Positions 1,332 to 21,723 of a DNA stretch of 64,000 bases are shown one piece after another. This DNA is from an uncultured Dehalococcoidales bacterium (GTDB taxonomy: Bacteria > Chloroflexota > Dehalococcoidia > GIF9 > AB-539-J10). The notes below the pieces were generated by a model that worked only from the letters and a program-made list of their open reading frames with translations, was not told the DNA's origin and made no database searches. The stretch's first letter is position 1. Every line of letters begins with the position of its first letter. The stretch is taken from the NCBI GenBank assembly GCA_964652095.1, contig CAZZAC010000001.1, forward strand, positions 9,258-73,257, in the 5' to 3' direction. The translations under genes were made by a program, and so were the position numbers.

Positions 1332-2381
1332 ATGCAGTACAAAAGGGTTTGTGTTGAGTCTTTTGGTTATGAACTTCCTGAGACTATCGTCACGTCTGTG
1401 AGCCTGGAAGAAAGACTGGCCCCAATATACAACAAATTGAATCTCCCCTATGGACGCTTGGAAATGATGACTGGGATTCGTGAACGGCGATTCTGGGACG
1501 ATGGAGTGACGCCGAGCCAAGCCAGCATAAAGGCAGCAGAAAAAGCCATCAGCAAGTCGGGAGTCAAAAAAGAAGACATCGGTTGCTTGCTTCACACCTC
1601 CGTATCTCGTGATTTCCTAGAGCCAGCGACGGCTACGGTAGTCCACGATTCTTTAGGCCTCCCATCCACAGCTACTATTTTTGACATCTCCAATGCCTGC
1701 CTCGGTTTCATTAACGGCATGGTAACTTTGGCAAATATGATTGAGCTGGGTCAGGTAAAAGCTGGGCTTGTGGTTGGCTGTGAGAGCAGCAAACGACTTA
1801 TTGATGCAACAATCGATAAGGTTTTGAAAGACCCGGACATCACCAGAGAAAAGCTCAAACTCGCCTTTGCCACCTTGACTTTGGGGGCAGGAGCAGCGGC
1901 AGCAGTGTTAACTCACTCCTCCCTATCGCGAGACGGGCATAAACTTCTTGGCGGGGTAACGCGCGCTGCTTCACAGCACAATGATCTTTGTCGTATACAA
2001 GCCGATACCTACTTCTTCGACCCGAGCATTTCGCCTGAGATGTACACAGACTCTAGAGAGCTCCTCAAAAATGGAGCAAAATTGGCGCCTGCCACCTGGG
2101 AGGCCACAAGACAAGAGCTTGGATGGAGGGACTCCGACGTAGATAGGTTTTTTACTCATCAGGTTAGCGCCGTGCATAGTAGACTATTGTTCAAGACCCT
2201 GGGACTGGATAAGGCAAAAGACTTTTCCACTGTAGAATATCTAGGAAACATTGGGTCGGTTTCCCTGCCCATTACCATGGCTATCGGAATTGACCAAGGT
2301 CGCCTTAACCCTGGTGATAAGGTTGCCATGATGGGGATCGGCAGCGGCATAGTCTGTCTTATGTTGGGTCTGGAATGGTAG
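1332..2381 (+). CDS. 3-oxoacyl-ACP synthase III (FabH-like) family condensing enzyme
   Basis: 349 aa. Active-site Cys in ISNACLGF, His in FTHQVS, Asn in YLGNIGSVS. First gene of the FAS-like cluster. Confidence 0.8.
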   Translation: MQYKRVCVESFGYELPETIVTSVSLEERLAPIYNKLNLPYGRLEMMTGIRERRFWDDGVTPSQASIKAAEKAISKSGVKKEDIGCLLHTSVSRDFLEPATATVVHDSLGLPSTATIFDISNACLGFINGMVTLANMIELGQVKAGLVVGCESSKRLIDATIDKVLKDPDITREKLKLAFATLTLGAGAAAAVLTHSSLSRDGHKLLGGVTRAASQHNDLCRIQADTYFFDPSISPEMYTDSRELLKNGAKLAPATWEATRQELGWRDSDVDRFFTHQVSAVHSRLLFKTLGLDKAKDFSTVEYLGNIGSVSLPITMAIGIDQGRLNPGDKVAMMGIGSGIVCLMLGLEW

Positions 2382-2492
2382 AGAAAATGGCCCTAACGAG
2401 ATGAGTTCAGGGAAATACTCCCTCAGACAGCAATGCAACTAGATTTCTTGAAGCCGCTCCGATATCTACGTTTTTGATGGAAGTTTTACCCT

Positions 2493-3743
2493 ATGGTGGC
2501 AAAGAAGCCTAATGAAGCACGAATTGTAATTACCGGGGTTGGCCTGACGGCGCCAAACGGAAATAATCTAGCGGAATTTCGAAAAAGTTTACTTGCTGGC
2601 AAATCCGGGGTACAGAAATTCAACGTCCGCTACATGGGTGAAGTATTGGCTGGTATATGCCACTTCGACCCACTGAAGTATCAAAAAAAGAAGGAATTGC
2701 GTCGGGGAACGAGGGCAGGCTCTATTGCTATCTACTGCGCTCAAGAAGCAATCGCTGATGCCAAATTGGACCTTGCTTGCCTTGATAAATCGAAGATTGG
2801 TATCTACCTTGGGATTACCGAGCATGGCACCGTGGAAACTGAAAACGAAATCTATGAAATTAAGCAATTTGACTATGATGTAAAATATTGGTCGCACCAT
2901 CATAATCCCAGAGTAGTGGCTAATAATCCCGCTGGCGAAGTCACCCTGAATATGGGAATTACCGGACCTCACTACACATTGGGGGCTGCTTGTGCTGGTG
3001 GCAACATTGGACTTACACAGGGCTTGCAAATGCTGCTGCTGAACGAAGTCGATTTAGCCCTAGCTGGTGGCATTTCCGAGAGTACCGGTTCCTTTGGTAT
3101 TTTTGCTGGCTTCAAAAGTGAAGGTGCTTTAGCTTCCCATGCAGACCCTGAGAAGGCATGCCGCCCCTTTGACAAGGATAGAAATGGTGTGGTTGTTTCC
3201 GAAGGCGGCTGCATTTTCGTTCTAGAAAGATTGAGCGATGCCCTTAACAGGGGAGCTAAAATCTACGGTGAAATCGTGGGCTATGCTATCAACTCAGATG
3301 CCACTGACTTTATTTTCCCCGACAAAGACAGACAAGTTGAGTGCATGAAACTTGCTCTTGACAAAGCCGGTATATCCCCCGAAGATATCGATATCATCAA
3401 TACCCATGGGACGGGCACCGTTGAAGGAGACCCTGTAGAGTGTCAGGCAATGAGAGAGGTCTTCGGTGAGCATCTCCATGCCTATATAAACAACACCAAG
3501 AGTTTTATCGGTCATGCTATGGGGGCTGCCGGCGCCTTAGAGTTAGCCGGTAATTTACCTTCTTTTGAAGACTATATTGTCCACCCTACGATCAATCTGG
3601 ATCACTTAGACCCTGAATGTCATCTTAACAACCTGGTTATCAATGAACCAAAAAAGATTGACAAGGTCGACTATATATTGAATAATTCCTTCGGAATGTT
3701 AGGCATCAATTCAGTTGTTATCGCAAAAAGATTTGAGGAATAA
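2493..3743 (+). CDS. beta-ketoacyl-ACP synthase I/II (FabF/FabB-like)
   Basis: 416 aa. Cys in HYTLGAACAGGN; His motifs NTHGTGT and GHAMGAAG are typical of the KAS I/II elongating condensing enzyme. Confidence 0.85.
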   Translation: MVAKKPNEARIVITGVGLTAPNGNNLAEFRKSLLAGKSGVQKFNVRYMGEVLAGICHFDPLKYQKKKELRRGTRAGSIAIYCAQEAIADAKLDLACLDKSKIGIYLGITEHGTVETENEIYEIKQFDYDVKYWSHHHNPRVVANNPAGEVTLNMGITGPHYTLGAACAGGNIGLTQGLQMLLLNEVDLALAGGISESTGSFGIFAGFKSEGALASHADPEKACRPFDKDRNGVVVSEGGCIFVLERLSDALNRGAKIYGEIVGYAINSDATDFIFPDKDRQVECMKLALDKAGISPEDIDIINTHGTGTVEGDPVECQAMREVFGEHLHAYINNTKSFIGHAMGAAGALELAGNLPSFEDYIVHPTINLDHLDPECHLNNLVINEPKKIDKVDYILNNSFGMLGINSVVIAKRFEE

Positions 3744-3781
3744 AGCTGAAGGCATTCTTGGAATAGACAAACGGGGGGTAC

Positions 3782-4033
3782 ATGACCAAGGAACAAATTA
3801 AAGCCACCATCCTAGAAATCATAGCGCAAATCATACCAGACGAAGACCTGAGTAATCTTAAGGGCGATATCCCGCTACGAGAACAAGTGGAACTGGACTC
3901 CATGGACTTCTTAGACATTATTATGGAGCTGCGAAAACGCTACGGCATCGAAGTCCCTGAGGATGACTATATGCAATTAGCCACCTTAGATGGCTCTATA
4001 GCTTATCTGGAGCCACGGATGAAAGAACTTTAA
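3782..4033 (+). CDS. acyl carrier protein
   Basis: 83 aa, acidic, phosphopantetheine attachment motif LDSMDFLDII (DSL-type Ser), immediately downstream of the KAS gene. Confidence 0.85.
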   Translation: MTKEQIKATILEIIAQIIPDEDLSNLKGDIPLREQVELDSMDFLDIIMELRKRYGIEVPEDDYMQLATLDGSIAYLEPRMKEL

Positions 4034-4058
4034 ACTAAAATGGCGTCAACTCTGTTTT

Positions 4059-4130
4059 TCTCTGCGCCGGGTCACTACCAGATTAAGGAAAGCCAGCTCC
4101 AGCAATCCCGGTCGGTACAGTGCGAGAAGT
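4059..4130 (+). repeat. about 70-bp direct repeat, copy A, in the leader of the GLUG gene (tctctgcgccgggtcactaccagattaagg...)
   Basis: About 75% identical to 6406..6476 by eye alignment; the two copies bracket the GLUG gene. Confidence 0.6.
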
Positions 4131-4135
4131 GCAAT

Positions 4136-6385
4136 ATGAACATAACATTTGGTTCGAGGAGACAGCGTGACGTCGCAAGAGCCAGTATCTTTCTGATCAT
4201 GGTAGCCTTAATTACAGGCATGGTAGGCTGTGCTCTTCCTCCTATTCGAATACAGGATTGGTATGACTTGAATGCCGTCAGAGACAACCCAGCCGGTAGC
4301 TACCGTCTGATGAACGACCTCGATTCCACTGCTGCCGGTTATACAAGGCTGGCGAGTAAGACAGCCAACCAAAGAAAGGGCTGGCAGCCGATTGGAACTT
4401 CGGGTAACCCCTTTACCGGGAGTTTCGACGGGCAGGGATACGAGATAAGGGACCTGTTTATCGACCGCACTGACGAAAATGAGGTCGGGCTTTTCGGTCT
4501 TGTTGATGAGGGAGGGGTCATCAAGAATGTTGGAGTGGTGAACGCCGCTGTGGCTGGCAAGCAATATGTTGGCGGTCTGGTGGGAAATAGTTCGGGCACT
4601 GTGAGCAACTCCTATTTCAGCGGCGGCGTGACTGGCGACCAGTGCCTTGGCGGTCTGGTGGGAGGGAATGTCGGCACTGTGAGCAACTCCTACTATAATT
4701 ACGACGAGGTTCTGATCAACGGAGAAAACATGATTACCATTGGAGCTTTGTTCGCTGAAGACTTCGAGCAGTGGCTTGCTAACGATAAGTTTTTGGACGT
4801 CAATCAAAGGCTTTCTCAAGAAAATGGTTGTTATGTGGTGAATGATGTCAGTGATTTTAAAGAGCTGCTCGCCTTTGGTCAGGATAGTTCCCTCAGATTT
4901 AGATTGACACACGATCTGGACTTAGGCAGTGAAGCCAACTTTTACATCCCTTATCTGGCTGGAGAGTTTGATGGCAATGGTCACAAAATCCTGAGCCTGA
5001 CCTTCAACTCTGATTTTGCTTCGCAAGTCGCATTATTCGGATATCTTGCTTCCGGTGGAGAAGTCACTCAACTGGGTGTCGAGAATGTAAACGTAACCGG
5101 CGCTTATCTGGTTGGCGGTCTAGTGGGAGGAAATGATGGCATTGTGAGCAACTCCTATTCCAGCGGCAACGTAACTGGCGATGATTACGTTGGCGGTTTG
5201 ATCGGATATAACTGGAAGGGCACTGTGAACAACTCCTATTGCGGCGGCAGTGTGGCTGGCAAGCGGGATGTCGGTGGTCTGGTGGGGATCAATGGGGGCA
5301 CCTTGACCAACTGCTATTCGAGCAGCAGCATCACCGGCTGGTATTCTGTTGGCGGTCTGGTCGGAATTAATGAAGGCACCGTGACTAACTCCTATTCGAG
5401 TGGCAGTGTCACTGCCTGGTATTCTGTTGGCAGTCTGGTCGGAATTAATGAGGGCAGCTTGAGCAACTCCTATTCGAGCGGCAGCGTCACTGGCTGGTAT
5501 TCTGTTGGCGGTCTGGTCGGAATTAATTCGGAAACTGTGAGCAACTCCTATTCCATCGCCAGCGTGAGTGGCAGGTCGGGTGTTGGCGGTCTGATCGGAA
5601 GTAGTTACGGCACTGTGACGAACTCCTATGCCACAGGCAGCGTGACTGGCGAGCGGGATGTCGGCGGTCTGGTGGGAAGTAATTACGACACTGTGACGAA
5701 CTCCTATGCCACAGACAGCGTGACTGGCGAGTGGAATGTTGGCGGTCTGGTGGGATCTAATTCGGGCACTGTCATCAAGTCCTATTCCACAGGCAGCATG
5801 ACTGGCAACTATTATGTTGGCGGCCTAGCAGGAGGGAATGATGGCACTGTGAGCAACTCCCATTCCACAGGCAACGTGACCGGCAACTATTATGTTAGCG
5901 GTCTGGTGGGATCTAATTCGGGCACTGTGACCAGCTCCTATTCCACGGGCAGCGTGACTGGCTCTTCGATTGTTAGCGGTCTGGTGGGGATCAATGGTTG
6001 GGATGGCACTGTGAGGAACTCCTATTCCACAGGCAGCGTGGCTGGCAGCTATTATGTTGGCGGTCTGGTGGGAGTGAATTTCGGCACAGTCAGCAACTCG
6101 TATTCCAGCGGTAACATGATCGGCGATGAGTATATTGGCGGTCTGGTGGGAGTGAATTGGAGAGGCACTGTGAGCAACTCCTTCTGGGATACCGAAACCA
6201 GCGGACAAGCTACTTCGGCTGGCGGGACAGGCAAGACCACCGCGGAAATGCAAGACAGCGCTACCTTCTTAGCGGCGGCGTGGGACATATGCGCGGTCGG
6301 TCCTGGCGCGACCAACCCCGCTTACACCTGGAATATCGTTCATGAGCAGACCTATCCCTTCCTGAGCTGGCAGTCCGTTGTTTAA
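4136..6385 (+). CDS. GLUG-motif repeat protein, probable secreted lipoprotein (about 16 tandem 21-22 aa repeats YVGGLVGxNxGTVSNSYSxGSVTG)
   Basis: ORF 4040..6385. The likely real start is Met33 (MNITFGSRRQRDVARASIFLIMVALITGMVGC: positive N-region, hydrophobic core, lipobox-like MVGC). The GGLVG...NSY repeat is the GLUG motif known from IgA1-protease-like surface proteins. The C-terminal non-repeat domain is typical of this family. Confidence 0.7.
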   Translation: MNITFGSRRQRDVARASIFLIMVALITGMVGCALPPIRIQDWYDLNAVRDNPAGSYRLMNDLDSTAAGYTRLASKTANQRKGWQPIGTSGNPFTGSFDGQGYEIRDLFIDRTDENEVGLFGLVDEGGVIKNVGVVNAAVAGKQYVGGLVGNSSGTVSNSYFSGGVTGDQCLGGLVGGNVGTVSNSYYNYDEVLINGENMITIGALFAEDFEQWLANDKFLDVNQRLSQENGCYVVNDVSDFKELLAFGQDSSLRFRLTHDLDLGSEANFYIPYLAGEFDGNGHKILSLTFNSDFASQVALFGYLASGGEVTQLGVENVNVTGAYLVGGLVGGNDGIVSNSYSSGNVTGDDYVGGLIGYNWKGTVNNSYCGGSVAGKRDVGGLVGINGGTLTNCYSSSSITGWYSVGGLVGINEGTVTNSYSSGSVTAWYSVGSLVGINEGSLSNSYSSGSVTGWYSVGGLVGINSETVSNSYSIASVSGRSGVGGLIGSSYGTVTNSYATGSVTGERDVGGLVGSNYDTVTNSYATDSVTGEWNVGGLVGSNSGTVIKSYSTGSMTGNYYVGGLAGGNDGTVSNSHSTGNVTGNYYVSGLVGSNSGTVTSSYSTGSVTGSSIVSGLVGINGWDGTVRNSYSTGSVAGSYYVGGLVGVNFGTVSNSYSSGNMIGDEYIGGLVGVNWRGTVSNSFWDTETSGQATSAGGTGKTTAEMQDSATFLAAAWDICAVGPGATNPAYTWNIVHEQTYPFLSWQSVV

Positions 6386-6405
6386 TGCAACTAAAGCTTG
6401 GAGTA

Positions 6406-6476
6406 TCTCTGCGTCCCGTCACTGCCAGATTAAGAAAGTGAGCCGAAGCAATACCGGTGGGTAGAGCGCAGGAAAG
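6406..6476 (+). repeat. about 70-bp direct repeat, copy B, downstream of the GLUG gene (tctctgcgtcccgtcactgccagattaaga...)
   Basis: Paired with 4059..4130; located just upstream of a sigma70-like promoter for the oxidoreductase operon. Confidence 0.6.
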
Positions 6477-6485
6477 GAAATAGAG

Positions 6486-6513
6486 TTGACCCCTTTACCC
6501 TTTGTATTATACT
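6486..6513 (+). promoter_or_regulatory. candidate sigma70-type promoter (TTGACC - 16 nt - TATACT) for the downstream oxidoreductase/FabG/FabZ/FabI/PPTase operon
   Basis: Hexamers read directly in the 256-bp gap 6386..6640; followed by an approximately 125-nt leader containing a short hairpin (gaggattgaaggcttagttagtcctc). Confidence 0.35.
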
Positions 6514-6640
6514 CTATGAACTAGGACTGTGGAAAAACTAAGCTATTACGTGGTGGTAGGCTAGGAACACAAGTTTTTTATCGCATTTTCCCCGAGGATT
6601 GAAGGCTTAGTTAGTCCTCAATTTTGAAAAGAGCCTGACC

Positions 6641-8026
6641 ATGGATTACGATGTTCTAATTATCGGTGCCGGAATGTCTGGTCTTGCCGCTGGCATTAGA
6701 TTGGCCTACTACGGTAAAAGGGTCTGCATCGTGGAAAAACATTATCGCGTTGGGGGACTGAATTCCTTCTACAACCTGGGGGGACGTAAATTCGACGTCG
6801 GCCTTCATGCCATGACCAATTATGTCCCCAAAGGTGTTAGATTAGCACCCTTGCCCAAGCTGCTACGACAGCTCAAACTAAAAGCTGAAGATTTCGCCCT
6901 CTGCCCACAACGGATGTCAGAAATTAAATTTCCCAATAAAACCCTCGGATTTAATAACGACTTCAGCTTTTTTGTCCAAGAGGTCGTCGATAATTTCCCA
7001 ACGCAAGCTGACAACTTCCAAAAACTGCTTAAGACTATTTTCGAATATGATGAACTGAACCTGTATGCCAAACCGATTTCGGCTCGTGAAGTTGTGAGTT
7101 CTATTATTTCCGACCCACTCCTCAGCGATATGATTTTTTGCCCGCCTATGTTTTATGGAAATGCTCAAGAGAATGGCATGGAGTTCGGACAATTTGTTAT
7201 CATGTTTAAGAGTATCTTCTGCGAAGGCCTGGCTCGACCCCAAGCTGGGATACGCCAAATCCTCGATGTGCTGGTGAAAAAATATAAGTCTTGCGGCGGT
7301 GAATTAAAGATGAGGTGCACGGTAACAAGTCTCAAATGTGCTAATGACAGGGTTGAATCAATCTTGCTCGAAAACGGTGAAGTCCTGACAGCCGATAGGA
7401 TACTATCATCCGCTGGTTATGTTGAAACGATGAAACTGTTGACCGACTATGATTCTTCAAAATTAAATTGCCATGTGGGTCAAATTTCATTTGTGGAGTC
7501 TATTCTCATTTTAAATAAAGAGCCCGCTAAAATGGGCCACAACACAACAATGACCTTTTACAACAACTCAGATAGATTTGATCATCGAAAACCTGACGAG
7601 CTAGTCGATGTTTCCAGTGGCGTTATTTGCTGCCCTAATAACTTTCAATTCGAAAATCCTCTGCCGGAGGGCATGATCAGGATAACCAACTTGGCTAATT
7701 TCGACCTCTGGAACAGATTGAGTGAAGAAGAGTACAAAGCCCAGAAAGCTGCCTGGTTGGAAACCACGCTTAAAGAGGTGGTGAAATTTGTGCCCGATTT
7801 TCGCCATTCAATTGTTTTTAGCGATATCTTTACTCCAAAAACGATCCACAAATTCACCGGCCACATAAATGGTGCGGTCTATGGGACACCAAATAAAACC
7901 AAAACGGGAAAGACTCATTTAGACAATCTATTTATCTGCGGCACAGACCAGGGATTCCTGGGAATCGTGGGAGCAATGCTTAGCGGTATCTCCATGGCAA
8001 ATCTTCACGTTCTGCAGAAGACGTAG
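6641..8026 (+). CDS. FAD-dependent oxidoreductase, phytoene desaturase/amine oxidase (CrtI-like) family
   Basis: 461 aa. N-terminal dinucleotide fold [38 protein letters not shown]. Confidence 0.8.
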
Positions 8027-8040
8027 AAAAAGAGAAATCT

Positions 8041-9480
8041 ATGAGCCACGATTGGTCGAAGGATACAAGGTCAGAATACGATGTCATCGTCATTGGAGGT
8101 GGACTGGCGGGATTAACATGTGCCAATATGTTAGCCAGAGGAGGACATTCAGTTTTACTTCTAGAGCAGCACTACAGCCTTGGCGGACTGGCTACCTGGT
8201 TCAAAAGAAAGGGGCACATCTTTGATATCGCCTTACACGGATTTCCAGTTGGTATGATTAAAACCTGTCGTAAATACTGGACGCCTGAAATTGCTAATAT
8301 GATTGTTCAACTCAAAGGGATCAGATTTGACAACCCCCAATTTTCCTTTACCACAACTTATGACAGGGAGGATTTTACACGCGTATTGCAGGAGCGATTC
8401 AAAATACCCCGAGAGAATATTGAAACCTTTTTCAACACAGCGAGAAATATGAATTTCTATGATGACCAAAGTATGACCACGAGAGAATTTTTTGAGAAAT
8501 TCTTTCCTGGCCATGATGATGTTGTCCGCATGTTAATGGAACCGATCACTTATGCCAACGGGTCAACCCTACTAGACGATCCCGCAATAAGTTACGGAAT
8601 TGTGTTCTCCAACTTCATGAGCAAAGGCGTTTATACTGTTCGAGGGGGAACAGACCAGTTTATCGGAAAAATGCGGGAGGAACTTCTAAAAAACGGCGTT
8701 GGTATTCGGACTAAGTGCCTGGTGGAAAAAATCATTATTAAGGATAGAAAGGTTAGCGGGGTAATAGCGAAAAGTGGAAGAGGATATCATTATCATATCA
8801 AGAGTAAGGCTGTTGTCTCCAATGGTAATTTGTTATCAACCATCCATAAACTGGTTGGAGATGAGAACTTTTCTAAAAGCTTCACTGAAGAGGCGAAAAA
8901 GGTGCGCCTCAATAATAGCAGTTGTCAGGTCTATATTGGTATCAAAAAAGGCGAGAGGATTGACTACATTGGGGATTTGCTTTTCACCTCAGAGGCGAAA
9001 AAATTTGATTCTGAAGAACTTTGCAGCAAAAATACTACCAGCCGGACCTTCTCAGTCTACTATCCCCAAATCCGGCCAGGCTCTGATATGTACTCCATTG
9101 TTGCCTCCTCTAATGCCAATTACGACGACTGGGCAAATCTGTCCGAAGAAGAATACCAAGCTTCTAAAGAAAGATTAATTCAACGAACGCTGGATGCTCT
9201 GGAGAAATATGTTCCTAAGATTCGGGATAAGGTAGACCACTTGGAAGCTTCTACTCCAAAGACATTTCAAAGGTATACGCTCCATTTAAATGGTGCCTCT
9301 TTTGGCACCAAATTTGAAGGGTTAAAGGTCAGTATGGGGCTTCCTAAAGAGATAGCGGGACTTTTCCATACTGGCTCAGTGGGGATTATCATGTCAGGTT
9401 GGCTAGGCACAGCTAATTACGGAGTAATTGTTGCCCATGATGTAGACAAATTTCTCTCGGCAGGTGCAAGAAATGTATGA
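8041..9480 (+). CDS. FAD-dependent oxidoreductase, phytoene desaturase (CrtI-like) family, paralog of the preceding gene
   Basis: 479 aa. [37 protein letters not shown]. 14-bp gap to the previous gene. Confidence 0.8.
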
Positions 9481-10213
9481 TTTCAAGGGACAGACTGTCA
9501 TCATCACTGGTGGAACCAGAGGTATAGGCAAAGCCATCGCCGAGAGTTTCTTGAAGGCAGGTGCTAAAGTTATTGTCACTTATTCGACAAATGAAGCTGC
9601 GGCGGCACAATTTAAACAAGACAACAGCCAGTTTGCCGAAAACATCAATATCCAAAAGCTTGATGTGACCAAGTATGAAGAGGTGGAAAAGTTTTTCAAA
9701 CACATAGACACGAAATATGGGGGCTTTGAAGTCCTGGTGAACAACGCCGGTATCCGAAAGGATTCTGTCCTGGCGATGATGAAAGAATCGGACTGGCATG
9801 ATGTGATGAATGTCAATCTCGCCGGAACCTTTTACATGTGCAAATTTGCTGTTATGAGCCTGATGCGCAAACGATACGGACGGATTATTAACATAAGCTC
9901 TGTGATGGAAAGATACGGTTTTGAAGGGCAGTCGAACTATGCAGCTTCAAAGGCAGGCCTCAGTGCATTGACTAAATCGTTGTCCAAGGAGGTCGCCACC
10001 CGGGGCATCACAGTCAATTGCGTTTCACCGGGATTTATCGCCACTGAATTGATCCAAGACCTTCCTGATAAATTGCGTGAAACTTACCTGGCCAGGATTC
10101 CCCTAAAGAGATTCGGAAATGCTGAAGAGGTGGCCGCTTGTGTTCTTTTCTTGGCTTCCAAAGAGGCGTCATATGTTACCGGTTCTACTCTTGAGGTGAC
10201 GGGAGGATTATGA
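9473..10213 (+). CDS. 3-oxoacyl-ACP reductase (FabG-like SDR)
   Basis: [21 protein letters not shown]; NNAG; S..Y...K catalytic triad ([21 protein letters not shown]). Start taken at ATG 9473 (the ORF track starts at GTG 9464); overlaps the upstream stop by 8 nt. Confidence 0.85.
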
Positions 10214-10214
10214 G

Positions 10215-10640
10215 ATGGAGGAGATTCTAAACGCTATACCCCATCGTCCACCATTTCTGTTCGTCGATAGGATCATAGAATTAAGCGGAACAAAAATCAA
10301 AACAACGAAAGAGATAAAGCCTGATGAACCAGTTTTCGCAGGACACTACCCAGGACACCCGATCATGCCCGGGGCACTTATCTGTGAATCTATTTTCCAA
10401 ACAGGCGCAATTCTGCTCTCCAAAATGATGGGCGGTATGGGAGAAGGTATTCCTGTTTTGACCCGAATTAATAACGCCAAGTTCAAGAGTATCGTCAAGC
10501 CCGGCAATATCCTAGATATTGAAGCGGAGCTGGTGGAAAAAGTCAGTAACGCTTATTTTATGAAGGGCAAAGCCTCAGTCGCCGGAAAGACCTCGGTCAC
10601 GGTTGAGTTTACCGTCACCTTAGCTAAAGAGGCACCCTGA
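10215..10640 (+). CDS. beta-hydroxyacyl-ACP dehydratase (FabZ/FabA-like hotdog fold)
   Basis: 141 aa. PHRPPFLFVDRIIEL...GHYPGHPIMPGALICESIFQTGAILL is the FabZ signature. Starts 2 nt after the FabG stop. Confidence 0.8.
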   Translation: MEEILNAIPHRPPFLFVDRIIELSGTKIKTTKEIKPDEPVFAGHYPGHPIMPGALICESIFQTGAILLSKMMGGMGEGIPVLTRINNAKFKSIVKPGNILDIEAELVEKVSNAYFMKGKASVAGKTSVTVEFTVTLAKEAP

Positions 10641-10672
10641 CATATATTGGGAAGGGTGATAAGGAGTAACAT

Positions 10673-11473
10673 ATGGATTTCTTAGACATTGCGGGTAAGA
10701 CTGTTCTTGTTTTTGGGGTAGCTAACAAGAAGAGCGTCGCCTTCTCTATCGGAGAGGTTCTTTCCGAGGCCAAGGCGAATGTAATCTATAGTGTTCGATC
10801 AGCGGCAAGAAAAGAGAGCGTCTCCAAGATTCTTCCTGGTGCTGATATATACGTATGCGATGTGGAACAGGAGCCGGAGATTAAAAAACTGGCCGAGGGC
10901 ATCTCTAAAAAATGTCCCAAACTTCACGGCATCGTTCATTCCATCGCTTTTGCCAATTACGAAGGAAGACTTAAGCCATTTCACGAAACAAAAAGGAAAG
11001 ACTTCCTGCAGTCAATTGATATCTCCTGTTATTCCTTAATCGCTATTGCTAATGCGTTTAAAGACCTATTAGATGTGAAGGCATCTGTAGTCACCATATC
11101 CATCTCGACCACCAAGATGGCAGCCGAACCCTATGGTTTTATGGCGCCGGTAAAAGCTGCCCTGGACTCAACCCTGTGCTTCCTGGCTAAATCCTTCAGT
11201 TCTTTTTCCCAAATCCGATTTAATTCCGTGAATGCCGGACTGTTAAAAACCTCCTCATCGGCAGGGATACCCGGATACTTAGATTATTACCTCTTCGCAG
11301 AACAACTAACCCTACGCAAAAAAGCTCTGACCACTAAAGAAGTAGCTAATATCGTAGCGTTTCTTTTAAGCGAGCGGTCCAGTGGCATTAATGCCCAGGG
11401 CATCGTTGTAGATGCTGGAATGTCAATCAACTACTTTGATAAAGACATTATCAAGAAGGCAATAAGGTTTTAG
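10673..11473 (+). CDS. enoyl-ACP reductase (FabI-like SDR)
   Basis: 266 aa. N-terminal [16 protein letters not shown] resembles the FabI GVASxxSIAxGIA motif. Y-x6-K ([11 protein letters not shown]) catalytic pair. Confidence 0.7.
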
Positions 11474-11480
11474 TAAGCCC

Positions 11481-12056
11481 ATGACTTTGTTTCCTGTAGT
11501 CATGCCAGTTATTGAAGCTGGACATAAACCCTCAGGGAAAGAAAAGGTAGACCATCTAAGCCGAATTGCTCGAGAGGCGCTAAAGGTGAGTGCCGAAAGA
11601 AGCCGAGTGAGGCTTGGAGAACTGCTCAAGGACGGAAAGGGTGTACCATGTCCAGTTGCTGGCATTTATTGGTCTATCTCCCATAAACCTAAATACGTGG
11701 CGGCAGTGGTTAGCGAGGATAAGGTCGGGATCGATATTGAAGAAATGAAGCCCCGGGCTGAATCACTCTTTGCTCATGTGGCGAGTGACGAGGAATGGGA
11801 GCTACAGGAGAAATCCTGGGTTGCCTTTTTCCGCTATTGGACGGCGAAAGAAGCCGCTCTGAAGGTTATCGAAATTGGCATAAGCGGATTAAAGACCTGC
11901 CGGATAATCTCAGTCCCCGATGAGAATCATATTACTCTGGACTATAAGGGGCAATTTTTTCTGGTGGAGCAACTACGATACAAGAACCATATTATTTCCG
12001 TCCTCAAAGACGACAACGAAATTGATTGGATAATTCTGGAAGACTTTAAACCCTGA
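11481..12056 (+). CDS. 4'-phosphopantetheinyl transferase (Sfp/EntD-type)
   Basis: 191 aa. ISHKPKYVAAVVS, GIDIEE, WTAKEAALK motifs. Starts 8 nt after the FabI-like stop, and would activate the cluster ACP. Confidence 0.75.
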   Translation: MTLFPVVMPVIEAGHKPSGKEKVDHLSRIAREALKVSAERSRVRLGELLKDGKGVPCPVAGIYWSISHKPKYVAAVVSEDKVGIDIEEMKPRAESLFAHVASDEEWELQEKSWVAFFRYWTAKEAALKVIEIGISGLKTCRIISVPDENHITLDYKGQFFLVEQLRYKNHIISVLKDDNEIDWIILEDFKP

Positions 12057-12136
12057 GCTCTAGAGCCTAAACAAATTCAAAAGCCCAATTCAAAGTGGTA
12101 GGTCACTAGATATTTTTAGTGTTTCGAACTTTATAT

Positions 12137-15100
12137 TTAGGATCTAACTGCGCAGTATCTCTCAGTGTACAGTTTCGCCTGATGTATAAAGGCCTCTATT
12201 CTTGTCTCTGCGTTGGTTTGCTTGAGCCCATCGTATATCATATTGAGCACAGGAATGCGGTTGTGCTCCCTTTGTATCCCTCTATAAATAGCAGTGGATA
12301 CAGTCCCATAAAGGCAATTTAAAATGACGAGATTAGCTATACCACTGCAGCCCTGCATAGCATAATTTTTCGCCTTAGCCACATTTACAGTTACTACTGG
12401 GTCTATATCATCACTTACATAAGGAGCGGCAAGCGTAACCACATCCTCAACCCTGGGGATCCTGCAATCTCGAAGCTCGTCTTTCATCATTCCCTCAATC
12501 TTTCCCTTCCAGTACATAAACGGAAACCTTCTAAGATAGTAATAAAGGGCAGAGAGATATTTTCTGCTAGAGAAGTGAGTCTCCGGATATACCTCATTAA
12601 AATATACTAAGTAATCTGTAGTAGTCGGCCCAAGCCTCACTTCAGCACCCAGTGACTCAAACTCTCTGATTATATCGTTGTTAGACCAGGAGTTCATACA
12701 GGTATAGAACTCTCCCACGATACCTATAATTGGTCTATCTTCATTCTTAGTTGGAATCTCGTCCATAGCTGCTATTGAGCGATTTAAAGCCTGCCAAAAT
12801 TTCCCGTTGATAATTCCAGAGGCTATCTCCTCTATGGCTTGTGCATAAACCCTGTCACTCTCCCCTTTATTTACTTCATAAGGGCGAATATGAAGTAACT
12901 TCTTTAATAAGACATCCGTAGCTAGCCAACCCTTCCAGACAGCCTCCGCCCACTTTAATCCAAATAATTCGGTGCATTCATCATGGCGGATAGAGGCAAC
13001 CGGGGCAACTATAGGGATATGCCCCAAACCTAATCTCTTGAGAACCAATTTCTGAGACAAGGCATATTGACTCAACCTGCATGAACCATCGAAGTTAAGC
13101 ATCATAAATGCTGCCCTATCCGGATCAAAATCTTCAAGTTGGGTCATCTTGACTAAATCCCCTGTGGTGAGTAAATAGGGATGACATTCCTTGCCAGAGA
13201 CGTATCTTCTTCCTATCTCCTCCGATAATTCATCAGGCTCGGGCAAAACCCGGGCATCTAGACCCACGGAGTTGAGAGCAGCAGCCCAAATAACGGAGTG
13301 CCCAGAAACATAGGGGATATAAAAGGTTTTATCCAGTTTCCTAAGCCTCTTTGTTGGTTTGAAGATACTTATCCCACCAGAGGGTCTAATCACACTGAGG
13401 TCTTCTTGCCTTTCCTCCTTTACCCGCGTTTTCGGTCTACCAAGGGTATCAAGAAAGGCCTCAACCCTGGTGGTCATTCCAGCATCACCGCTGTGCTCAT
13501 CTACCTCCAGAAGTAGATAAGGATCCTCTTCCATGGTTTCCTCAAGATACTTCCAGAAGAAAGCATCAGGACCGCAGCCATAATTGGTGATCATTATAGG
13601 ATTCAAGCTGGGGTTATTCTTAGCTATCATCGCTGCCCGCAGAAGATTTTGTTCATTCTTCCAAACCAAGTTGGAGTAATGAGGTGGCAGCTCAACCCTA
13701 TCCAGCGGCAGTAGGTCAAATGGTATGGCCAGCATTCCTAGATGTCGCAACTTCTTGGCAATATTTAGATTCAGCGCCAAATCATGAACATTGTAAGGCT
13801 TTCCTATTACCACCACGGCTTCATTATCCTTCGTAAGGGTCTTAAGTATCTCTTGACCCCTTTCTCGACGAATCCTTTCGAATTCGTCTTGAGCCTTAAC
13901 CGCAGCGGTTATGGCTGAGGCAATTTCCCCCGTTTCTTTTCCGAATTCCCTGCCTATCTTCTTCATTTCCCTCTTCAGGTTCTCTTTTTCCTTTGCCATA
14001 AATATGCTAGGACTTATGATTTTTGCTCTATCTTTAAAAGCAGGTCTAAGCATGAAGGGGATACCCTGAATCAAGGGGCAGTTGTAACTCCTGGCTACAT
14101 CATCACTATCCTTCTCCAGGTCAATAATGCTGGGCAGGAATATACGGTCAACACCTTTTTCAATGAGATTTGCTACATGCCCATAGGCAATCTTCACCGG
14201 ATAGCAGGCTTCAGCTAAAACCTCTTGAAGTCCCTTATGAATGAGCCTCCTATTAGTTTTATCGGACAGCACCACTTTAACTCCCAACTCCCCAAAAAAC
14301 GCAGCCCACAATGGAAACTGCTCAAAGAACATGAGCACTCGTGGAATGCCTATTACCGGAGAATTCGGGGCAAATTCATCCTCCTTATAATAGTTCATAA
14401 GCATTTCCTCTCGCTCTTTAAAGAGATCGGGAAGAACCTGGTCAGCGGTTTTTTCGCCTTTCAGCTCATATCTATCACAAATACCACCGTAAAAGGATTT
14501 GAATTCGCCTCCGATGGATATCTTTTTTATGTCGCAGTGGTTGGGGCAATGCTGGCATTCAAAGGATTTGACCTCATATTCCCGGTCTGTGAGGTCAAAC
14601 CCGACAAAATCGCTTTTCCCATCCCCATGTCTCCTCTCCATGGCAATCAACGCAGCACCTATGGCACCGGTTACATTGTAGTTCTGCGGAACCGTAATCT
14701 TCTTCCCCAAAATATTTTCGAAGGCAGCCACTACACTCTCATTTCCGGCAACGCCTCCCTGAAAACATATCCTCTCGCCAATTTTCTTATTCCCTACCAC
14801 CTTTTCAATGTAATTATTGGCAATAGAGTAGGAAAGCCCCGCTAAGAGATCGACTTTCGGTGAACCTACCTGCTGGTGGTGTATTAAATCAGATTCCATA
14901 AAAACAGTGCACCGGGTCCCCAAATCAACAGGAGCTTTCGAGCTAAGAGCAAGCTTGCTAAACTCCTCCTCAATATTTATGTCCAATCTATCAGCCTGTT
15001 CCTGGAGAAAGGAGCCAGTTCCTGCAGCACAAACCTTGTTCATCTCAAAATCTACCACTGCGCCATTCTTCAGGCGGATATATTTTGAATCCTGCCCCCC

Positions 15101-16381
15101 TATTTCAAATATGGTGTCTACGGTCTCATCGATATCCAGTGTGGCCTTAGCCTGAGCAGTGATCTCATTAACTACTACATCAGCGCCGATGAAGTCCCCT
15201 GTAGAATAACGTGCACTGCCAGTGGTCGCCACAGCTTGGACTTCAATAAGGTCCTTTATTTCATGACCTATGTCTTTTAATCCTTTCTTAACTGACTCAA
15301 TGGGATTGCCCTCGGTCATGAGATACTTCATCGCCAGCAGCTTCTTGTTTTCATCCAGAATAACGATATTTGTACTAACAGCGCCAACATCAACCCCTAT
15401 ATACACCTTATTCTTTTGTTGCTTTCTAAGAATAGGACACTCATCCAATGGAGTAGAACCATCCCCGTTATAAATCAATCTCCTTAAATGCCCTACCTCA
15501 GCTTCACTGGCCTTTTTAGCTAAATAGCGCCTCAAGACCTCCGTTGCTACTTGAAGTCTGATAGGTGTGTCACTTTGTCTCTCCGAGGCCGTGATTGCCG
15601 CTCCGAAGGCTCCCATGACCTTAAAATACTCGGGAATAATCAATTCCCCAGGCTTGAGTTCTAGCAGTTCTTCAAAAGCCTTAGCCACCCCTTTATTGGC
15701 AGCGACGCCACCTTGAAAGGCTACTGGCTTTACGAATCTCCTCCCTTTACCTAAATTGCTTATGTAATTTCTAGCCAAGGCATAACAAAGCCCAGCTATT
15801 ATTTCTTCCTGTGATGTCCCCTCTTGCTGCAAATGGACCATGTCAGATTTGGCAAAGACACTGCACCTGCCCGCAATGGTAGCCGGCTTTTCAGCTCTCG
15901 TGGCTAAACTGCTGAACTCATCTATGGAAATCCCCAGACGATATGCCTGTTGATCAAGGAAAGAGCCAGTTCCCGCAGCGCATATCTCATTAAGGGCATG
16001 GTCAACGATGACTGTCCTTCTACTTTTTTCATCCCACTCCAGGAAAATCAGCTTTGAGTCCTGCCCTCCAATCTCGATAACTGTCCTAACCTCAGGATGG
16101 AAGTATGCGACAGCCTTTGCCTGAGTAATAATTTCATTTTCTTTATCTACACCCATGACATCAGCTATAAGGTTACGTCCGCTGCCCGTGCATACAGCCC
16201 CACATAGTTCAGGAAAATCTTTTTCGAGACCCTCAAAAACATCAATTAATACTGGAATAGGTTGCCCCCTTGTCCTCTCATAGACGCTTTCGAGGAGTCG
16301 GAGTTTCTCATCAATTACAGCTATGTTTAAGCTGACCGAGCCTATATCTATTCCCATAAAGGTTTTGCTTTGGCTTGTCAT
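12137..16381 (-). CDS. giant fusion protein: two BadF/BadG/BcrA/BcrD-type (HgdC-like) ATPase activase domains plus a C-terminal 2-hydroxyacyl-CoA dehydratase D-component-like (HgdB-like/DUF2229) region
   Basis: ORF 12137..16459. Two actin-fold ATPase modules (FMGIDIGSVSLNIAVID..., VYIGVDVGAVSTNIVILD...) are followed by a Cys-containing dehydratase-like region (CQHCPNHCD...). Start placed at Met27 (16381) because it forms an ATGA overlap with the stop of the upstream SRPBCC gene. Confidence 0.8.
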   Translation of the reverse strand: MTSQSKTFMGIDIGSVSLNIAVIDEKLRLLESVYERTRGQPIPVLIDVFEGLEKDFPELCGAVCTGSGRNLIADVMGVDKENEIITQAKAVAYFHPEVRTVIEIGGQDSKLIFLEWDEKSRRTVIVDHALNEICAAGTGSFLDQQAYRLGISIDEFSSLATRAEKPATIAGRCSVFAKSDMVHLQQEGTSQEEIIAGLCYALARNYISNLGKGRRFVKPVAFQGGVAANKGVAKAFEELLELKPGELIIPEYFKVMGAFGAAITASERQSDTPIRLQVATEVLRRYLAKKASEAEVGHLRRLIYNGDGSTPLDECPILRKQQKNKVYIGVDVGAVSTNIVILDENKKLLAMKYLMTEGNPIESVKKGLKDIGHEIKDLIEVQAVATTGSARYSTGDFIGADVVVNEITAQAKATLDIDETVDTIFEIGGQDSKYIRLKNGAVVDFEMNKVCAAGTGSFLQEQADRLDINIEEEFSKLALSSKAPVDLGTRCTVFMESDLIHHQQVGSPKVDLLAGLSYSIANNYIEKVVGNKKIGERICFQGGVAGNESVVAAFENILGKKITVPQNYNVTGAIGAALIAMERRHGDGKSDFVGFDLTDREYEVKSFECQHCPNHCDIKKISIGGEFKSFYGGICDRYELKGEKTADQVLPDLFKEREEMLMNYYKEDEFAPNSPVIGIPRVLMFFEQFPLWAAFFGELGVKVVLSDKTNRRLIHKGLQEVLAEACYPVKIAYGHVANLIEKGVDRIFLPSIIDLEKDSDDVARSYNCPLIQGIPFMLRPAFKDRAKIISPSIFMAKEKENLKREMKKIGREFGKETGEIASAITAAVKAQDEFERIRRERGQEILKTLTKDNEAVVVIGKPYNVHDLALNLNIAKKLRHLGMLAIPFDLLPLDRVELPPHYSNLVWKNEQNLLRAAMIAKNNPSLNPIMITNYGCGPDAFFWKYLEETMEEDPYLLLEVDEHSGDAGMTTRVEAFLDTLGRPKTRVKEERQEDLSVIRPSGGISIFKPTKRLRKLDKTFYIPYVSGHSVIWAAALNSVGLDARVLPEPDELSEEIGRRYVSGKECHPYLLTTGDLVKMTQLEDFDPDRAAFMMLNFDGSCRLSQYALSQKLVLKRLGLGHIPIVAPVASIRHDECTELFGLKWAEAVWKGWLATDVLLKKLLHIRPYEVNKGESDRVYAQAIEEIASGIINGKFWQALNRSIAAMDEIPTKNEDRPIIGIVGEFYTCMNSWSNNDIIREFESLGAEVRLGPTTTDYLVYFNEVYPETHFSSRKYLSALYYYLRRFPFMYWKGKIEGMMKDELRDCRIPRVEDVVTLAAPYVSDDIDPVVTVNVAKAKNYAMQGCSGIANLVILNCLYGTVSTAIYRGIQREHNRIPVLNMIYDGLKQTNAETRIEAFIHQAKLYTERYCAVRS

Positions 16382-16797
16382 TCCGATCCCTCGATCCTTG
16401 TTTTCACTGCCAGCGCAATCTCGGCTGAGACCTCTTGCCCACCGCGGCGCGCCAGCCAAGCTAAAGCCCCTGAAACGTCGCCGCCAATGGTAACCTTCGT
16501 CTTGCCATTTACAGGTTCCAGAGTGTAGAAGCGTGTCAAATTGGTGCCCAGGGCTTTTCCTTGCATGACCACATTCCGCTCTGGGACAAACTCGGTAATC
16601 GTCATCAATAATTTAACCGTAAGCCTGCTTACCTTAGCTGTGACAGAAAGCTGCGAGCCTACTGTCAAAGGCCCCTTAGAGAGCCTCTCAATCTTCTTGA
16701 TGGACGGCATCCATTGGGGCCACTCTTCAAGCTTGTCTACCAGCGCCCAGACTTTCTCGGCAGGGGCATTAATGTCGATGCTACTCTCAAACCTCAT
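16378..16797 (-). CDS. SRPBCC (Bet v1/START-like, polyketide cyclase/dehydrase family) protein
   Basis: 139 aa. N-terminus INAPAEKVWALVDKLEEWPQWMP is typical of SRPBCC ligand-binding proteins. Stop overlaps the start of the giant fusion gene (translational coupling). Confidence 0.7.
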   Translation of the reverse strand: MRFESSIDINAPAEKVWALVDKLEEWPQWMPSIKKIERLSKGPLTVGSQLSVTAKVSRLTVKLLMTITEFVPERNVVMQGKALGTNLTRFYTLEPVNGKTKVTIGGDVSGALAWLARRGGQEVSAEIALAVKTRIEGSE

Positions 16798-17040
16798 GCC
16801 CGTCGAACTCCTCCTTCACGTAGTATCCTACAAAGATATTATACATCATTATACAATCTAAGAGATTAGCCCAATAAGTGTATCCTCTACGTCTCTCTAA
16901 TTCATCAGAGCAGTGAAAGCGTGCCGGGGTGAAATTGGGCACATCGTACTTTTCTTGAGGCTAGATTGTCACCAGTGATAAAATAAGTCTTAAATGGTAC
17001 CTCAAAATCGGCCTAGTATCCTGTGAAACTCAATCGGCAC

Positions 17041-17973
17041 ATGAGCTTCAGTAGATCTGATATCATCCGACCTCCAAGTGAATGGAAAAGCTATTTTCTC
17101 CCTTTAACCAGCGGGTGCTCCAACAACACCTGCACTTTCTGTGGATACTATGGCTCGAAGCTTCAAATACGAGATGTCGATGACATCAAGAGTGAAATAG
17201 ATGCCGTAGCCTTATTCACTCGGAGTGGCATTCAAATTCCTGACGTTTCTGAGGTGGTATATGCCGTGGCTCAAGGTTGGGATGGCAAGAGGATATTTCT
17301 CCAGGATGGCGATGCCCTTGTTTACCCCTTCCCTAAATTAAGGGAGGTTCTCCAGTACTTGAATGAGAAACTGCCCGGTGTCGAAAGGATTGGTACATAT
17401 GCCACGCCACAGGATATCTTGCGCAGGAACTCCGATGAACTTAAGGAATTAAGACAGCTCAAGTTAGGTATTTTTTATACAGGGCTCGAGACCGGTGATG
17501 ATGAACTGCTCCAGAAGATAGATAAAGGGGTAAGTTCACATCAGATAGTCGAGGCGGGAAAGAAAGTGAAGGAAGCCGGGATAAGCTTTTCTGTGACGAT
17601 AATTTTAGGACTTGACGGTATCGAGGGAAGCAAGGAACACGTGCTTGAGACAGCTAAGGTGCTCACTGAGATTGACCCGGATTATGTCGGAGCTTTGACT
17701 TTGACCCTCGTCCCCGATACCCCGCTCTATGAGCGGTGGGAACGGAATGAATTCCATCCTCTTTCTCCTTTCCAATCCTTGGAGGAACTGAGGTTAATTA
17801 TAGAGAATTCCAACTTTACCAATTGCTTCTTTAGCTCAATGCATGCCTCAAACTATCTTTCCGTCCGCGGCAAGTTGCCGCAGGATAGAGAGAGGATGCT
17901 TAAGGAACTAAAAGTAGTTTTGGCAGCAAGAGACCCCTCTCTACTCAGGCCTGAATTTCTCAGAGGTCTATGA
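17041..17973 (+). CDS. radical SAM family protein (non-canonical CX4CX2C cluster motif)
   Basis: ORF 17023..17973. Motif GCSNNTCTFCGY occurs near the N-terminus where the CxxxCxxC motif normally sits. Start taken at MSFSRSD. Divergent from the SRPBCC/fusion operon. Confidence 0.65.
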   Translation: MSFSRSDIIRPPSEWKSYFLPLTSGCSNNTCTFCGYYGSKLQIRDVDDIKSEIDAVALFTRSGIQIPDVSEVVYAVAQGWDGKRIFLQDGDALVYPFPKLREVLQYLNEKLPGVERIGTYATPQDILRRNSDELKELRQLKLGIFYTGLETGDDELLQKIDKGVSSHQIVEAGKKVKEAGISFSVTIILGLDGIEGSKEHVLETAKVLTEIDPDYVGALTLTLVPDTPLYERWERNEFHPLSPFQSLEELRLIIENSNFTNCFFSSMHASNYLSVRGKLPQDRERMLKELKVVLAARDPSLLRPEFLRGL

Positions 17974-18106: not shown

Positions 18107-19048
18107 TCAATAAACTACTATGTACTTGCCTTCTGCTGCCCCTAGTCCGTGCTTTAATGCGGTAGCAATTTGTGGTAGTTCCCAAGGATTGGCAGGGATC
18201 TTATTAGAAGCCCGGTAATCTAAGAGCACCTTCATTGCCTCGACATCGATAGCAATAAGGTCACCAGAAGCCAGCACTAAGCCTGGCTCGACCAATTGGC
18301 CCTTATCCGGTCCGCCAGATACGAAGGCTTTCCTGCCATCCATGACGATGAGATCGGGCTGCCAACAAAGACTTATTTCAGCCAACTTCTCCTGCAAATG
18401 ACCAAGGTGAAAACTACGCCGTTGCCCAGGAGCAACAAAGCCGAAAGCAAGTTTAATTGCACCAGAAAATGCACCAAGGTTGTGAGTCTTCATGCATGGC
18501 AGATAAACCATCTTGTCAGCTTCATAAGCGGAGCGAGGCATTATAACTTTGCTTAAATAATCTCCATTGATCCTGATCTGTACCCAATCATTAGGCCTAT
18601 CTTCAAAAGCAATAAGTTCAACACCTAGCCTTTGAACTAACTCGGGGACACCGAGTTGATTGAAGACTTTTCTAGTTGGCCGCCAAACGCCACCAGAGCT
18701 CTCACCAATGGTGACTTCAGCCCCAGTTTCCAGGATAAGTTCAATCACGACTTGAAGAAATGCCAAGTCAGTAGCTGCTGGGAACGGGTCTGGGCTGTTG
18801 AAATTTGGTTTTACAAGAACTCGGTCACCCCTACCAATGGTTTGTTTTAAATTGCCCATTGATGCAATAGCTTGGCCAATAGCTAACCGAATATCTCCTT
18901 TTGCTTTCATTTTGGCTACGACTGGCTGGTTATTCCTGAGCCACGGGTTACTCCTTCGTGGCTTTGGCTCTACACATGGAATACCCCTTGGTATCCTGTC
19001 GCCTAGAAAGTGATACACTCCAACAACTCTATCAAAGAGAACCGCCAT
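18107..19048 (-). CDS. DUF362 domain-containing protein
   Basis: 313 aa. Family-level resemblance only (VLVKPNFNSP..., IVMDGRKAFVSGGP). Confidence 0.6.
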   Translation of the reverse strand: MAVLFDRVVGVYHFLGDRIPRGIPCVEPKPRRSNPWLRNNQPVVAKMKAKGDIRLAIGQAIASMGNLKQTIGRGDRVLVKPNFNSPDPFPAATDLAFLQVVIELILETGAEVTIGESSGGVWRPTRKVFNQLGVPELVQRLGVELIAFEDRPNDWVQIRINGDYLSKVIMPRSAYEADKMVYLPCMKTHNLGAFSGAIKLAFGFVAPGQRRSFHLGHLQEKLAEISLCWQPDLIVMDGRKAFVSGGPDKGQLVEPGLVLASGDLIAIDVEAMKVLLDYRASNKIPANPWELPQIATALKHGLGAAEGKYIVVY

Positions 19049-21664: not shown

Positions 21665-21723
21665 AGTTGCGGACCGGTAGCTAAGAACTACCGATCATAG
21701 TAAACGAAGAGGCGATATACGTA

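Follow-up and report, generated by a model that had tools for sequence, protein, structure and literature searches.

A predicted fused radical enzyme, probably of the PlsA/Ger ether-lipid synthase family, and its coupled SRPBCC gene in an uncultured Dehalococcoidales bacterium

The enzymes PlsA/PlsR and Ger turn the sn-1 esters of glycerolipids into vinyl or alkyl ethers (PMC13159169, PMC12838417, PMC8788747). Here we describe a stretch of 64,000 nucleotides (nt) from an uncultured Dehalococcoidales bacterium (contig CAZZAC010000001.1), referred to as the window, in which a giant open reading frame (ORF) of 1414 amino acids (aa) probably encodes a further member of this family and overlaps with a small gene for an SRPBCC (Bet v1-like) protein. 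Earlier publications cover both the PlsA/Ger family and its occurrence in Chloroflexi, so the core of the finding is not new biology. The coupling to an SRPBCC gene and the conserved placement at a fatty acid synthesis (FAS) locus in Dehalococcoidia were not mentioned in the literature that we searched.

The plsA-plsR genes of Clostridium perfringens (CPE1194-1195; Q8XL48/Q8XL47) and the single-gene forms of Enterococcus faecalis (EF1327; Q835P9), Lactococcus and Bifidobacterium gave rise to plasmalogens when expressed in Escherichia coli (PMC12838417); a single-gene form is also known from Listeria. The plsA gene of E. faecalis is 4248 bp long, corresponding to 1415 aa, and AlphaFold3 models of PlsA proteins were described in terms of the modules Act1, Act2, Red1 and Red2 (PMC12838417). 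The "modified PlsA" of Thermotoga maritima (Tmari_0479/AGL49404) and Desulfatibacillum alkenivorans (SHJ90043) received the name glycerol ester reductase (Ger); under anoxia it converts the sn-1 ester to a saturated alkyl ether (PMC13159169). Its Pfam pattern consists of two PF01869 domains, one PF09989 domain and small PF06050 and PF09989 pieces ("BBD-H-D..."), and homologs were reported in many phyla, Chloroflexi among them (PMC13159169). According to the same authors the alkyl- and alkenyl-forming enzymes are inseparable by sequence (PMC11868695, PMC13274423). They also put forward a tentative rule, as a hypothesis only, by which two activation domains indicate an alkyl-ether producer.

Architecture and family of the giant protein

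The giant ORF (12137..16381, minus strand, 1414 aa plus stop) was identified from the ORF listing and its translation, and is matched by Pfam/NCBIfam models and by homologs. It lies immediately behind the 139 aa SRPBCC gene (16378..16797, minus strand), and the sequence ggaATGAcaagc shows a 4-base overlap of the ATG of the giant ORF with the TGA of the SRPBCC gene. This ATGA overlap had been pointed out in the sequence-only reading and can be seen directly in the translation. A Shine-Dalgarno-like motif (GAGGGA) is found 8 nt upstream of the ATG. An in-frame TTG at 16459 would extend the ORF to 1440 aa; it is not the start, because the homologs begin at the same methionine as ATG 16381 (consensus MxxxxKxYMGIDIGS). 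A scan for promoters and terminators around the gene pair gave nothing better than shuffled sequence.

Analysis with Pfam and NCBIfam showed two BcrAD_BadFG/TIGR00241 acyl-CoA dehydratase activase domains (E 5e-73 / 8e-93; 310 bits for TIGR00241). The first HgdC-type ATPase domain, Act1 (≈residues 7–290; 15512..16363, minus strand, as for all modules below), carries the nucleotide motifs GIDIGS and EIGGQDSK, and is followed by Act2 (≈residues 326–585; 14627..15406). These domains match HgdC, HadI, MbdQ/P and DCCP-R by sequence with E values of 1e-24 to 1e-43 (PDB 1hux, 4eht, 9gai_D and 7yyl_E). Then comes a C609-x2-C612-x3-C616...C635 motif (14477..14557), and after this Red1 (≈residues 650–995; 13397..14434), which has a DUF2229 domain (residues 677–890, E 5e-66 with Pfam) and an HGD-D-like tail. 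The PlsR-equivalent module Red2 (≈residues 1005–1414; 12140..13369) completes the protein. In the C-terminal 520 aa Pfam gave sub-threshold matches only, to the end of HGD-D (E 3.4e-4) and to a second DUF2229 (E 0.09). None of the hydrophobic segments of the protein reaches transmembrane level.

The Cys residues were compared in an alignment of 104 full-length proteins, namely the window protein, 94 representatives of clusters at 50% identity, eight Chloroflexota-type homologs and the Listeria ortholog described below. Fourteen Cys residues are invariant across these diverse members, Listeria included. Two each belong to Act1 (C134 and C173) and Act2 (C451 and C491), four form the linker motif (C609, C612, C616 and C635), which is thus 100% conserved, and three each are found in Red1 (C726, C768 and C936) and Red2 (C1066, C1101 and C1356). 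Profile–profile comparison with hhalign showed that Red1 and Red2 are homologous (probability 98%, E 2.3e-13), with the three Cys residues of each module in register. The linker motif, which AlphaFold2 models as β-hairpins with low confidence, is probably an Fe-S or Zn site.

The AlphaFold2 model of residues 590–1414 (predicted local distance difference test score, pLDDT, 80.7; predicted template modeling score, pTM, 0.80) was compared with the PDB by Foldseek. The top matches were (R)-2-hydroxyisocaproyl-CoA dehydratase HadBC (3o3m_B/D), the benzoyl-CoA reductase BzdNO (8s02_B), the double-cubane cluster protein (DCCP; 7yyl_A and 6eno) and MbdON (9gai_B), all with probability 1.0 and template modeling (TM) scores of 0.45–0.55, at an identity of only 11–15%. 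From sequence and model together, the giant protein is placed in the radical-enzyme superfamily of 2-hydroxyacyl-CoA dehydratases (HAD), benzoyl-CoA reductases (BCR) and DCCP, with HgdC-type ATPases holding two Cys residues each and modules of HgdA/HgdB fold. The predicted order Act1-Act2-(4-Cys)-Red1-Red2 amounts to a complete activator dimer and a catalytic pseudo-heterodimer in one polypeptide. The sequence-only reading of an intact fusion of two activase ATPases with catalytic modules of this superfamily is therefore borne out by Pfam/NCBIfam and Foldseek. The "HgdB-like region" named there was right as to its Cys-containing DUF2229 domain and incomplete otherwise, as the catalytic half has two homologous modules, preceded by the invariant CxxCxxxC...C motif, and holds both HgdA- and HgdB-equivalents as a fused pseudo-heterodimer.

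A 2-hydroxyacyl-CoA dehydratase or benzoyl-CoA reductase proper was considered and rejected. PF06050 (HGD-D) reached 20.7 bits, below its cut-off of 28.4, the BCR equivalog models stayed far under their cut-offs and matched the ATPase domains only, and sequence and profile searches of the PDB matched the activase part and found no catalytic subunit. By analogy, the giant protein would share with HgdAB+HgdC, HadBC+HadI, BzdNOPQ, MbdONPQ and DCCP/DCCP-R an ASKHA-type ATPase dimer that is bridged by a [4Fe-4S] cluster and sends a low-potential electron into Fe-S modules. Unlike these systems it has all four modules on one polypeptide and an extra invariant four-Cys motif, and its characterized PlsA/Ger relatives act on a glycerolipid ester and not on a CoA thioester.

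Homologs of the giant protein are numerous. Among the matches listed, 120 proteins were found, most of them 1404–1432 aa long, with 52–94% identity and 99–100% coverage; they are annotated as Dehalococcoidia or Chloroflexota and come from many independent metagenomes. Those of 1412–1414 aa reach 94% identity and span 100% of the protein. A scan of one genome per species showed the same single ORF in 80 loci of several phyla. Searching residues 600–1414 with phmmer against 1.84 billion representatives gave 968 clusters (50% identity) at E ≤ 1e-30, and since most of these are ≈1400 aa long, the fused form is what is usual in this very large family. The nearest relatives outside Chloroflexota are metagenome-assembled genomes (MAGs) of Desulfobacterales (47–51% identity), followed by Syntrophaceae, Thermodesulfobacteriota and others (43–46%). 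Each of the two clades, that of the Desulfobacterales MAGs and that of Dehalococcoidia, has the other as its nearest neighbor; when the closest protein from a Desulfobacterales MAG served as the query, only MAGs and the Dehalococcoidia clade were retrieved, and not D. alkenivorans.

The link to enzymes of described function was made through Listeria, which is reported to carry pls orthologs that are active anaerobically (PMC9702350). The protein WP_014600632.1 of L. monocytogenes (1475 aa), taken from chromosome records that are mislabeled as plasmids in PLSDB, is colinear with the giant protein over 1317 residues (29% identity, E 8e-155), and was the only gene of this kind found in that species. 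Further features shared with PlsA are the module order, a length of 1414 aa compared with 1415 aa for the single-gene form, and the presence of all family-invariant Cys residues. The family architecture, two PF01869 and one PF09989 followed by sub-threshold PF06050-like and second PF09989 pieces, is by description also the Pfam pattern of Ger, with two activation domains, DUF2229 and small remnants of HGD-D and DUF2229. In the literature searched, the PlsA/Ger study (PMC13159169) was the only one seen to give DUF2229 a function; one further paper with the term was not read.

We consider it probable, with a rough probability of 0.65, that the giant protein is a Dehalococcoidia member of the PlsA/Ger ether-lipid synthase family. 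Judged by sequence, its substrate is most likely a glycerolipid ester and not an acyl-thioester, because its architecture and homology are those of PlsA/Ger, whose enzymes act on glycerolipid sn-1 esters. Two statements of the sequence-only reading have to be revised here. The substrates of such fusions were held to be uncharacterized, which is outdated, as the architecture is that of PlsA(-PlsR) and Ger (PMC13159169, PMC12838417, PMC8788747), and an acyl-thioester, hinted at from the locus, is not the best guess. Under the tentative two-activation-domain rule the protein would be Ger-like, but an alkyl or alkenyl product cannot be assigned from sequence and we make no call between the two. 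An anaerobic host is probable, a further point in common with PlsA. Unlike the described PlsA proteins, the protein comes from Chloroflexota (Dehalococcoidia), is coupled to an SRPBCC gene and is encoded beside FAS genes.

The SRPBCC gene and the fatty acid synthesis neighborhood

The 139 aa protein matches Polyketide_cyc2 with 62 bits (cut-off 27.4) and Polyketide_cyc with 40.7 bits (cut-off 23.4), which agrees with its earlier assignment as an SRPBCC protein. Its predicted secondary structure, with β-strand, two α-helices, β-strands and a long C-terminal helix, fits the helix-grip fold of SRPBCC/START/Bet v1-like proteins such as CoxG and the Rv0910 type. An Rv0910-type toxin (NCBIfam NF047960) was rejected, as the match reached 52.7 bits against a cut-off of 100 and the gene's coupled partner is the giant ORF, not an antitoxin. 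None of the papers found in our literature search combined an SRPBCC protein with PlsA or Ger.

Conservation of the neighborhood was followed in 9 loci fetched by protein identity and in the 80 genomic loci, with phmmer and hidden Markov model searches of all their ORFs. All eight evaluable loci at ≥75% identity have an ortholog of the SRPBCC gene directly upstream of the giant gene, and seven of them also keep the ATGA overlap. In other phyla of the sample no SRPBCC neighbor was seen. The one distant exception is a metagenome contig (L007), where a 144 aa ortholog (4999–5433, minus strand; E 1e-35) lies divergently beside a 1465 aa family member (5577–9974, plus strand) with 52% identity to the giant protein. 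The co-occurrence that the sequence-only reading had put up for survey thus holds for a Dehalococcoidia subclade and for one more distant relative, and is not general: the SRPBCC association is a feature of the subclade at ≥75% identity with one independent recurrence.

The remaining genes on the L007 contig (Leu/Phe-tRNA protein transferase, FxsA and HDOD) do not look like Dehalococcoidia, and the SRPBCC-giant gene pair may have been co-transferred. In two Dehalococcoidia MAGs the SRPBCC gene upstream of the giant ORF looks split or truncated. It falls into two ORFs in L011 (7476–8001), while in L012 (7608–7904) it is N-terminally truncated and separated from the giant ORF by a 106 nt gap. 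Gene decay or an error in sequencing may be the cause, and the finding bears on whether the partner is dispensable.

On the giant gene's other side, a type II FAS cluster (1332..11473, plus strand) comprises FabH (1332–2381), FabF (2493–3743), acyl carrier protein (ACP; 3782–4033), a GLUG-repeat protein, two CrtI-like flavin adenine dinucleotide (FAD) oxidoreductases, FabG (9464–10213), FabZ (10215–10640) and FabI (10673–11473). It is followed by a gene for an Sfp-type 4'-phosphopantetheinyl transferase (PPTase; 11481..12056, plus strand), which is a conserved neighbor. Including the PPTase, the cluster is convergent with the giant ORF, with 80 nt between its end and the 3' end of that ORF. 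The FAS-like cluster noticed in the sequence-only reading is hence present, as plus-strand genes from FabH to FabI with the PPTase.

FAS genes adjoin the giant gene in most of the evaluable Dehalococcoidia loci. In relatives at 73–93% identity the orientation is usually convergent as in the window, with the PPTase and/or FabH immediately downstream, and the convergent PPTase is kept in relatives at 73–92%. Relatives at 67–70% (L006, L018, L019 and L020) have the co-directional order giant-x-FabH-FabF-ACP-CrtI-CrtI-FabG-FabZ-FabI. The complete genome CP070819.1 (L001) is the exception within Dehalococcoidia. In the sampled loci of other phyla no adjacency to a FAS cluster was found, apart from isolated weak matches to single Fab-like proteins (E 1e-14 to 1e-46) in L029, L035, L044 and L058. 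The FAS association is thus a class-level feature of Dehalococcoidia, which upholds the earlier expectation of co-occurrence for this class and not for other phyla. The pls genes of facultative anaerobes are instead found beside a TetR/AcrR regulator (PMC9702350).

Two proteins inside the FAS cluster stand apart from the usual Fab set. The tandem FAD oxidoreductases between ACP and FabG (6641–9480, plus strand) are CrtI/CrtD-like (phytoene-desaturase family), and the pair is kept in the clusters of L002, L006, L010 and L020, whose giant genes are 69–92% identical to that of the window. This suggests a putative step of fatty-acyl desaturation or modification. The 781 aa GLUG-repeat protein between ACP and the CrtI-like genes (4040–6385, plus strand) has an N-terminal hydrophobic segment, and a similar protein of 777 aa is found near the locus in L002 and L003.

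Alternative readings and proposed working

Several points weigh against the assignment to PlsA/Ger and the role proposed for its partner. The assignment was made via the Listeria ortholog, to which the identity is just 29%, and the validated proteins Q8XL48/Q8XL47, Q835P9, AGL49404 and SHJ90043 were compared by description only. The family is deeply divergent (26% identity between Listeria and a Paraclostridium homolog, 26–33% among members from named bacteria) and one MAG has two paralogs (L035 and L055); the function of the family may therefore not be uniform. A literature search for ether lipids of Dehalococcoidia found nothing relevant. For the SRPBCC protein, the gene is absent from Dehalococcoidia relatives at 67–73% identity, which have an aldolase-II gene or others upstream, the AlphaFold2 model is poor (pLDDT 55.9, shallow alignment), and its role is purely inferred.

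The same divergence and the two copies in one MAG would also fit a giant protein that is a functionally distinct paralog within the BBD-HGD family. It would then be an ATP-dependent low-potential reductase or dehydratase, similar to DCCP, for a different substrate, hydrophobic or small, and the SRPBCC protein would carry this ligand. The fold does match the double-cubane reductase DCCP as well, and SRPBCC proteins bind many kinds of hydrophobic ligands. However, ether lipids are made by all those family members whose function has been tested, the Listeria ortholog has the same invariant residues, and the lipid-synthesis neighborhood points to lipids. We therefore regard a divergent function of this kind as unlikely.

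The neighborhood could also be read as supplying the substrate itself, so that an acyl-ACP or acyl-CoA from the FAS genes would be handled by a self-activating enzyme similar to 2-hydroxyacyl-CoA dehydratases or benzoyl-CoA reductases. FAS genes, ACP and PPTase do adjoin in most Dehalococcoidia loci, and the catalytic half has the HAD/BCR fold. Yet the similarity to HAD/BCR catalytic subunits is at fold level only (11–15%) and gives no PDB match even by profile, while the full-length homology to a pls ortholog (E 8e-155) is far stronger than to any CoA-ester enzyme. Moreover, FAS adjacency is absent outside Chloroflexota though the catalytic Cys residues are all conserved there, and it would equally be expected of an enzyme that modifies membrane lipids. 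A thioester substrate thus seems quite improbable. Finally, that the fusion is a frameshift or misassembly joining separate hgdC- and hgdB-like genes, as the sequence-only reading asked to have checked, is refuted by more than 100 independent homologs of 1404–1432 aa with 99–100% coverage from many samples and assemblers and by the single ORF in a further 80 loci of several phyla, with nothing found in its favor.

As a PlsA/Ger-type protein, the giant protein would be an oxygen-sensitive, ATP-driven enzyme that converts the sn-1 acyl ester of membrane glycerolipids either to the vinyl ether of plasmalogens, as PlsA does, or to a saturated alkyl ether, as Ger does. Its working can be sketched by analogy with the HAD/BCR/DCCP enzymes and with the published PlsA proposal. 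Act1 and Act2 would form an intramolecular pseudo-dimer with a bridging [4Fe-4S] cluster on C134, C173, C451 and C491. A low-potential donor would reduce this cluster, and ATP hydrolysis would push the electron onward, possibly through the four-Cys site, to three-Cys Fe-S sites in Red1 and Red2. There the ester carbonyl could be reduced in two one-electron steps, protonated and dehydrated to the vinyl ether, or give the saturated ether in a Ger-type enzyme. Placement beside the type II FAS genes fits a role in building membrane lipids.

We propose for the SRPBCC protein the role of an accessory peculiar to this lineage, which would bind the hydrophobic substrate or product lipid, or present it to the soluble enzyme. 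In a bolder version, which appears doubtful to us, it would be a dedicated subunit that presents lipids in stoichiometric amounts, a START-like carrier extracting the glycerolipid or holding the acyl chain for a soluble, oxygen-sensitive radical enzyme; the pair would be wired into the FAS operon, and ether lipids would be a main constituent of the membrane. If this were true, anoxic sediments would have in these uncultured Dehalococcoidia an unrecognized source of non-isoprenoid alkyl or alkenyl glycerol ethers.

Non-isoprenoid ether lipids (monoalkyl glycerol ethers, plasmalogens and precursors of glycerol dialkyl glycerol tetraethers of the branched type, brGDGTs) serve as biomarkers, and their producers in anoxic sediments are poorly known. 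Dehalococcoidia are abundant in such sediments and, to our knowledge, this lineage has no cultured representatives. An intact PlsA/Ger-type gene beside fatty acid synthesis genes across the class makes the idea that Dehalococcoidia make ether lipids concrete, and together with the SRPBCC coupling it yields a testable prediction, namely that an abundant uncultured Dehalococcoidia lineage makes these lipids. The SRPBCC protein is also a candidate for the first accessory factor of the PlsA/Ger family, and such a factor could help to account for the access of a soluble radical enzyme to an ester embedded in the membrane.

Related loci and other genes of the window

Two of the related loci show peculiarities of the giant gene or its surroundings. 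In the complete genome CP070819.1 (L001), genes for a ferredoxin, two separate BcrAD_BadFG ATPases and an HGD-D protein are located immediately downstream of the giant gene (14828–17921, minus strand), so that a fused and a classical split system of the same superfamily are found side by side. In a 93%-identical MAG (L021, a Microflora Danica bin; 8001–12237) the giant ORF is uninterrupted only from 9733, and tblastn covers residues 1–1412. The interruption probably stems from a frameshift or an error of sequencing in this assembly.

Upstream of the gene pair in the window, and divergent from the SRPBCC gene, lies a gene for a 316 aa radical S-adenosylmethionine (SAM) protein (17023–17973, plus strand) with weak matches to B12-type radical SAM families, adjoined by a DUF362 protein gene (18107–19048, minus strand). 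Both were considered as members of the system and rejected, since they are not conserved neighbors; the radical SAM gene, which recurs in L021 only, is probably unrelated. Next to them, a molybdopterin oxidoreductase (741 aa), a 4Fe-4S dicluster protein (180 aa) and a nitroreductase-family protein are encoded in this order (19439–22266, plus strand). This module is of anaerobic redox type, consistent with an oxygen-sensitive lifestyle of the host. Further along, a 1275 aa protein (23595–27422, minus strand) combines a double zinc ribbon, a Ser/Thr protein kinase and an AAA_16 ATPase, and its gene is situated in the most GC-rich stretch of the window (0.55–0.57, compared with ≈0.46 elsewhere).

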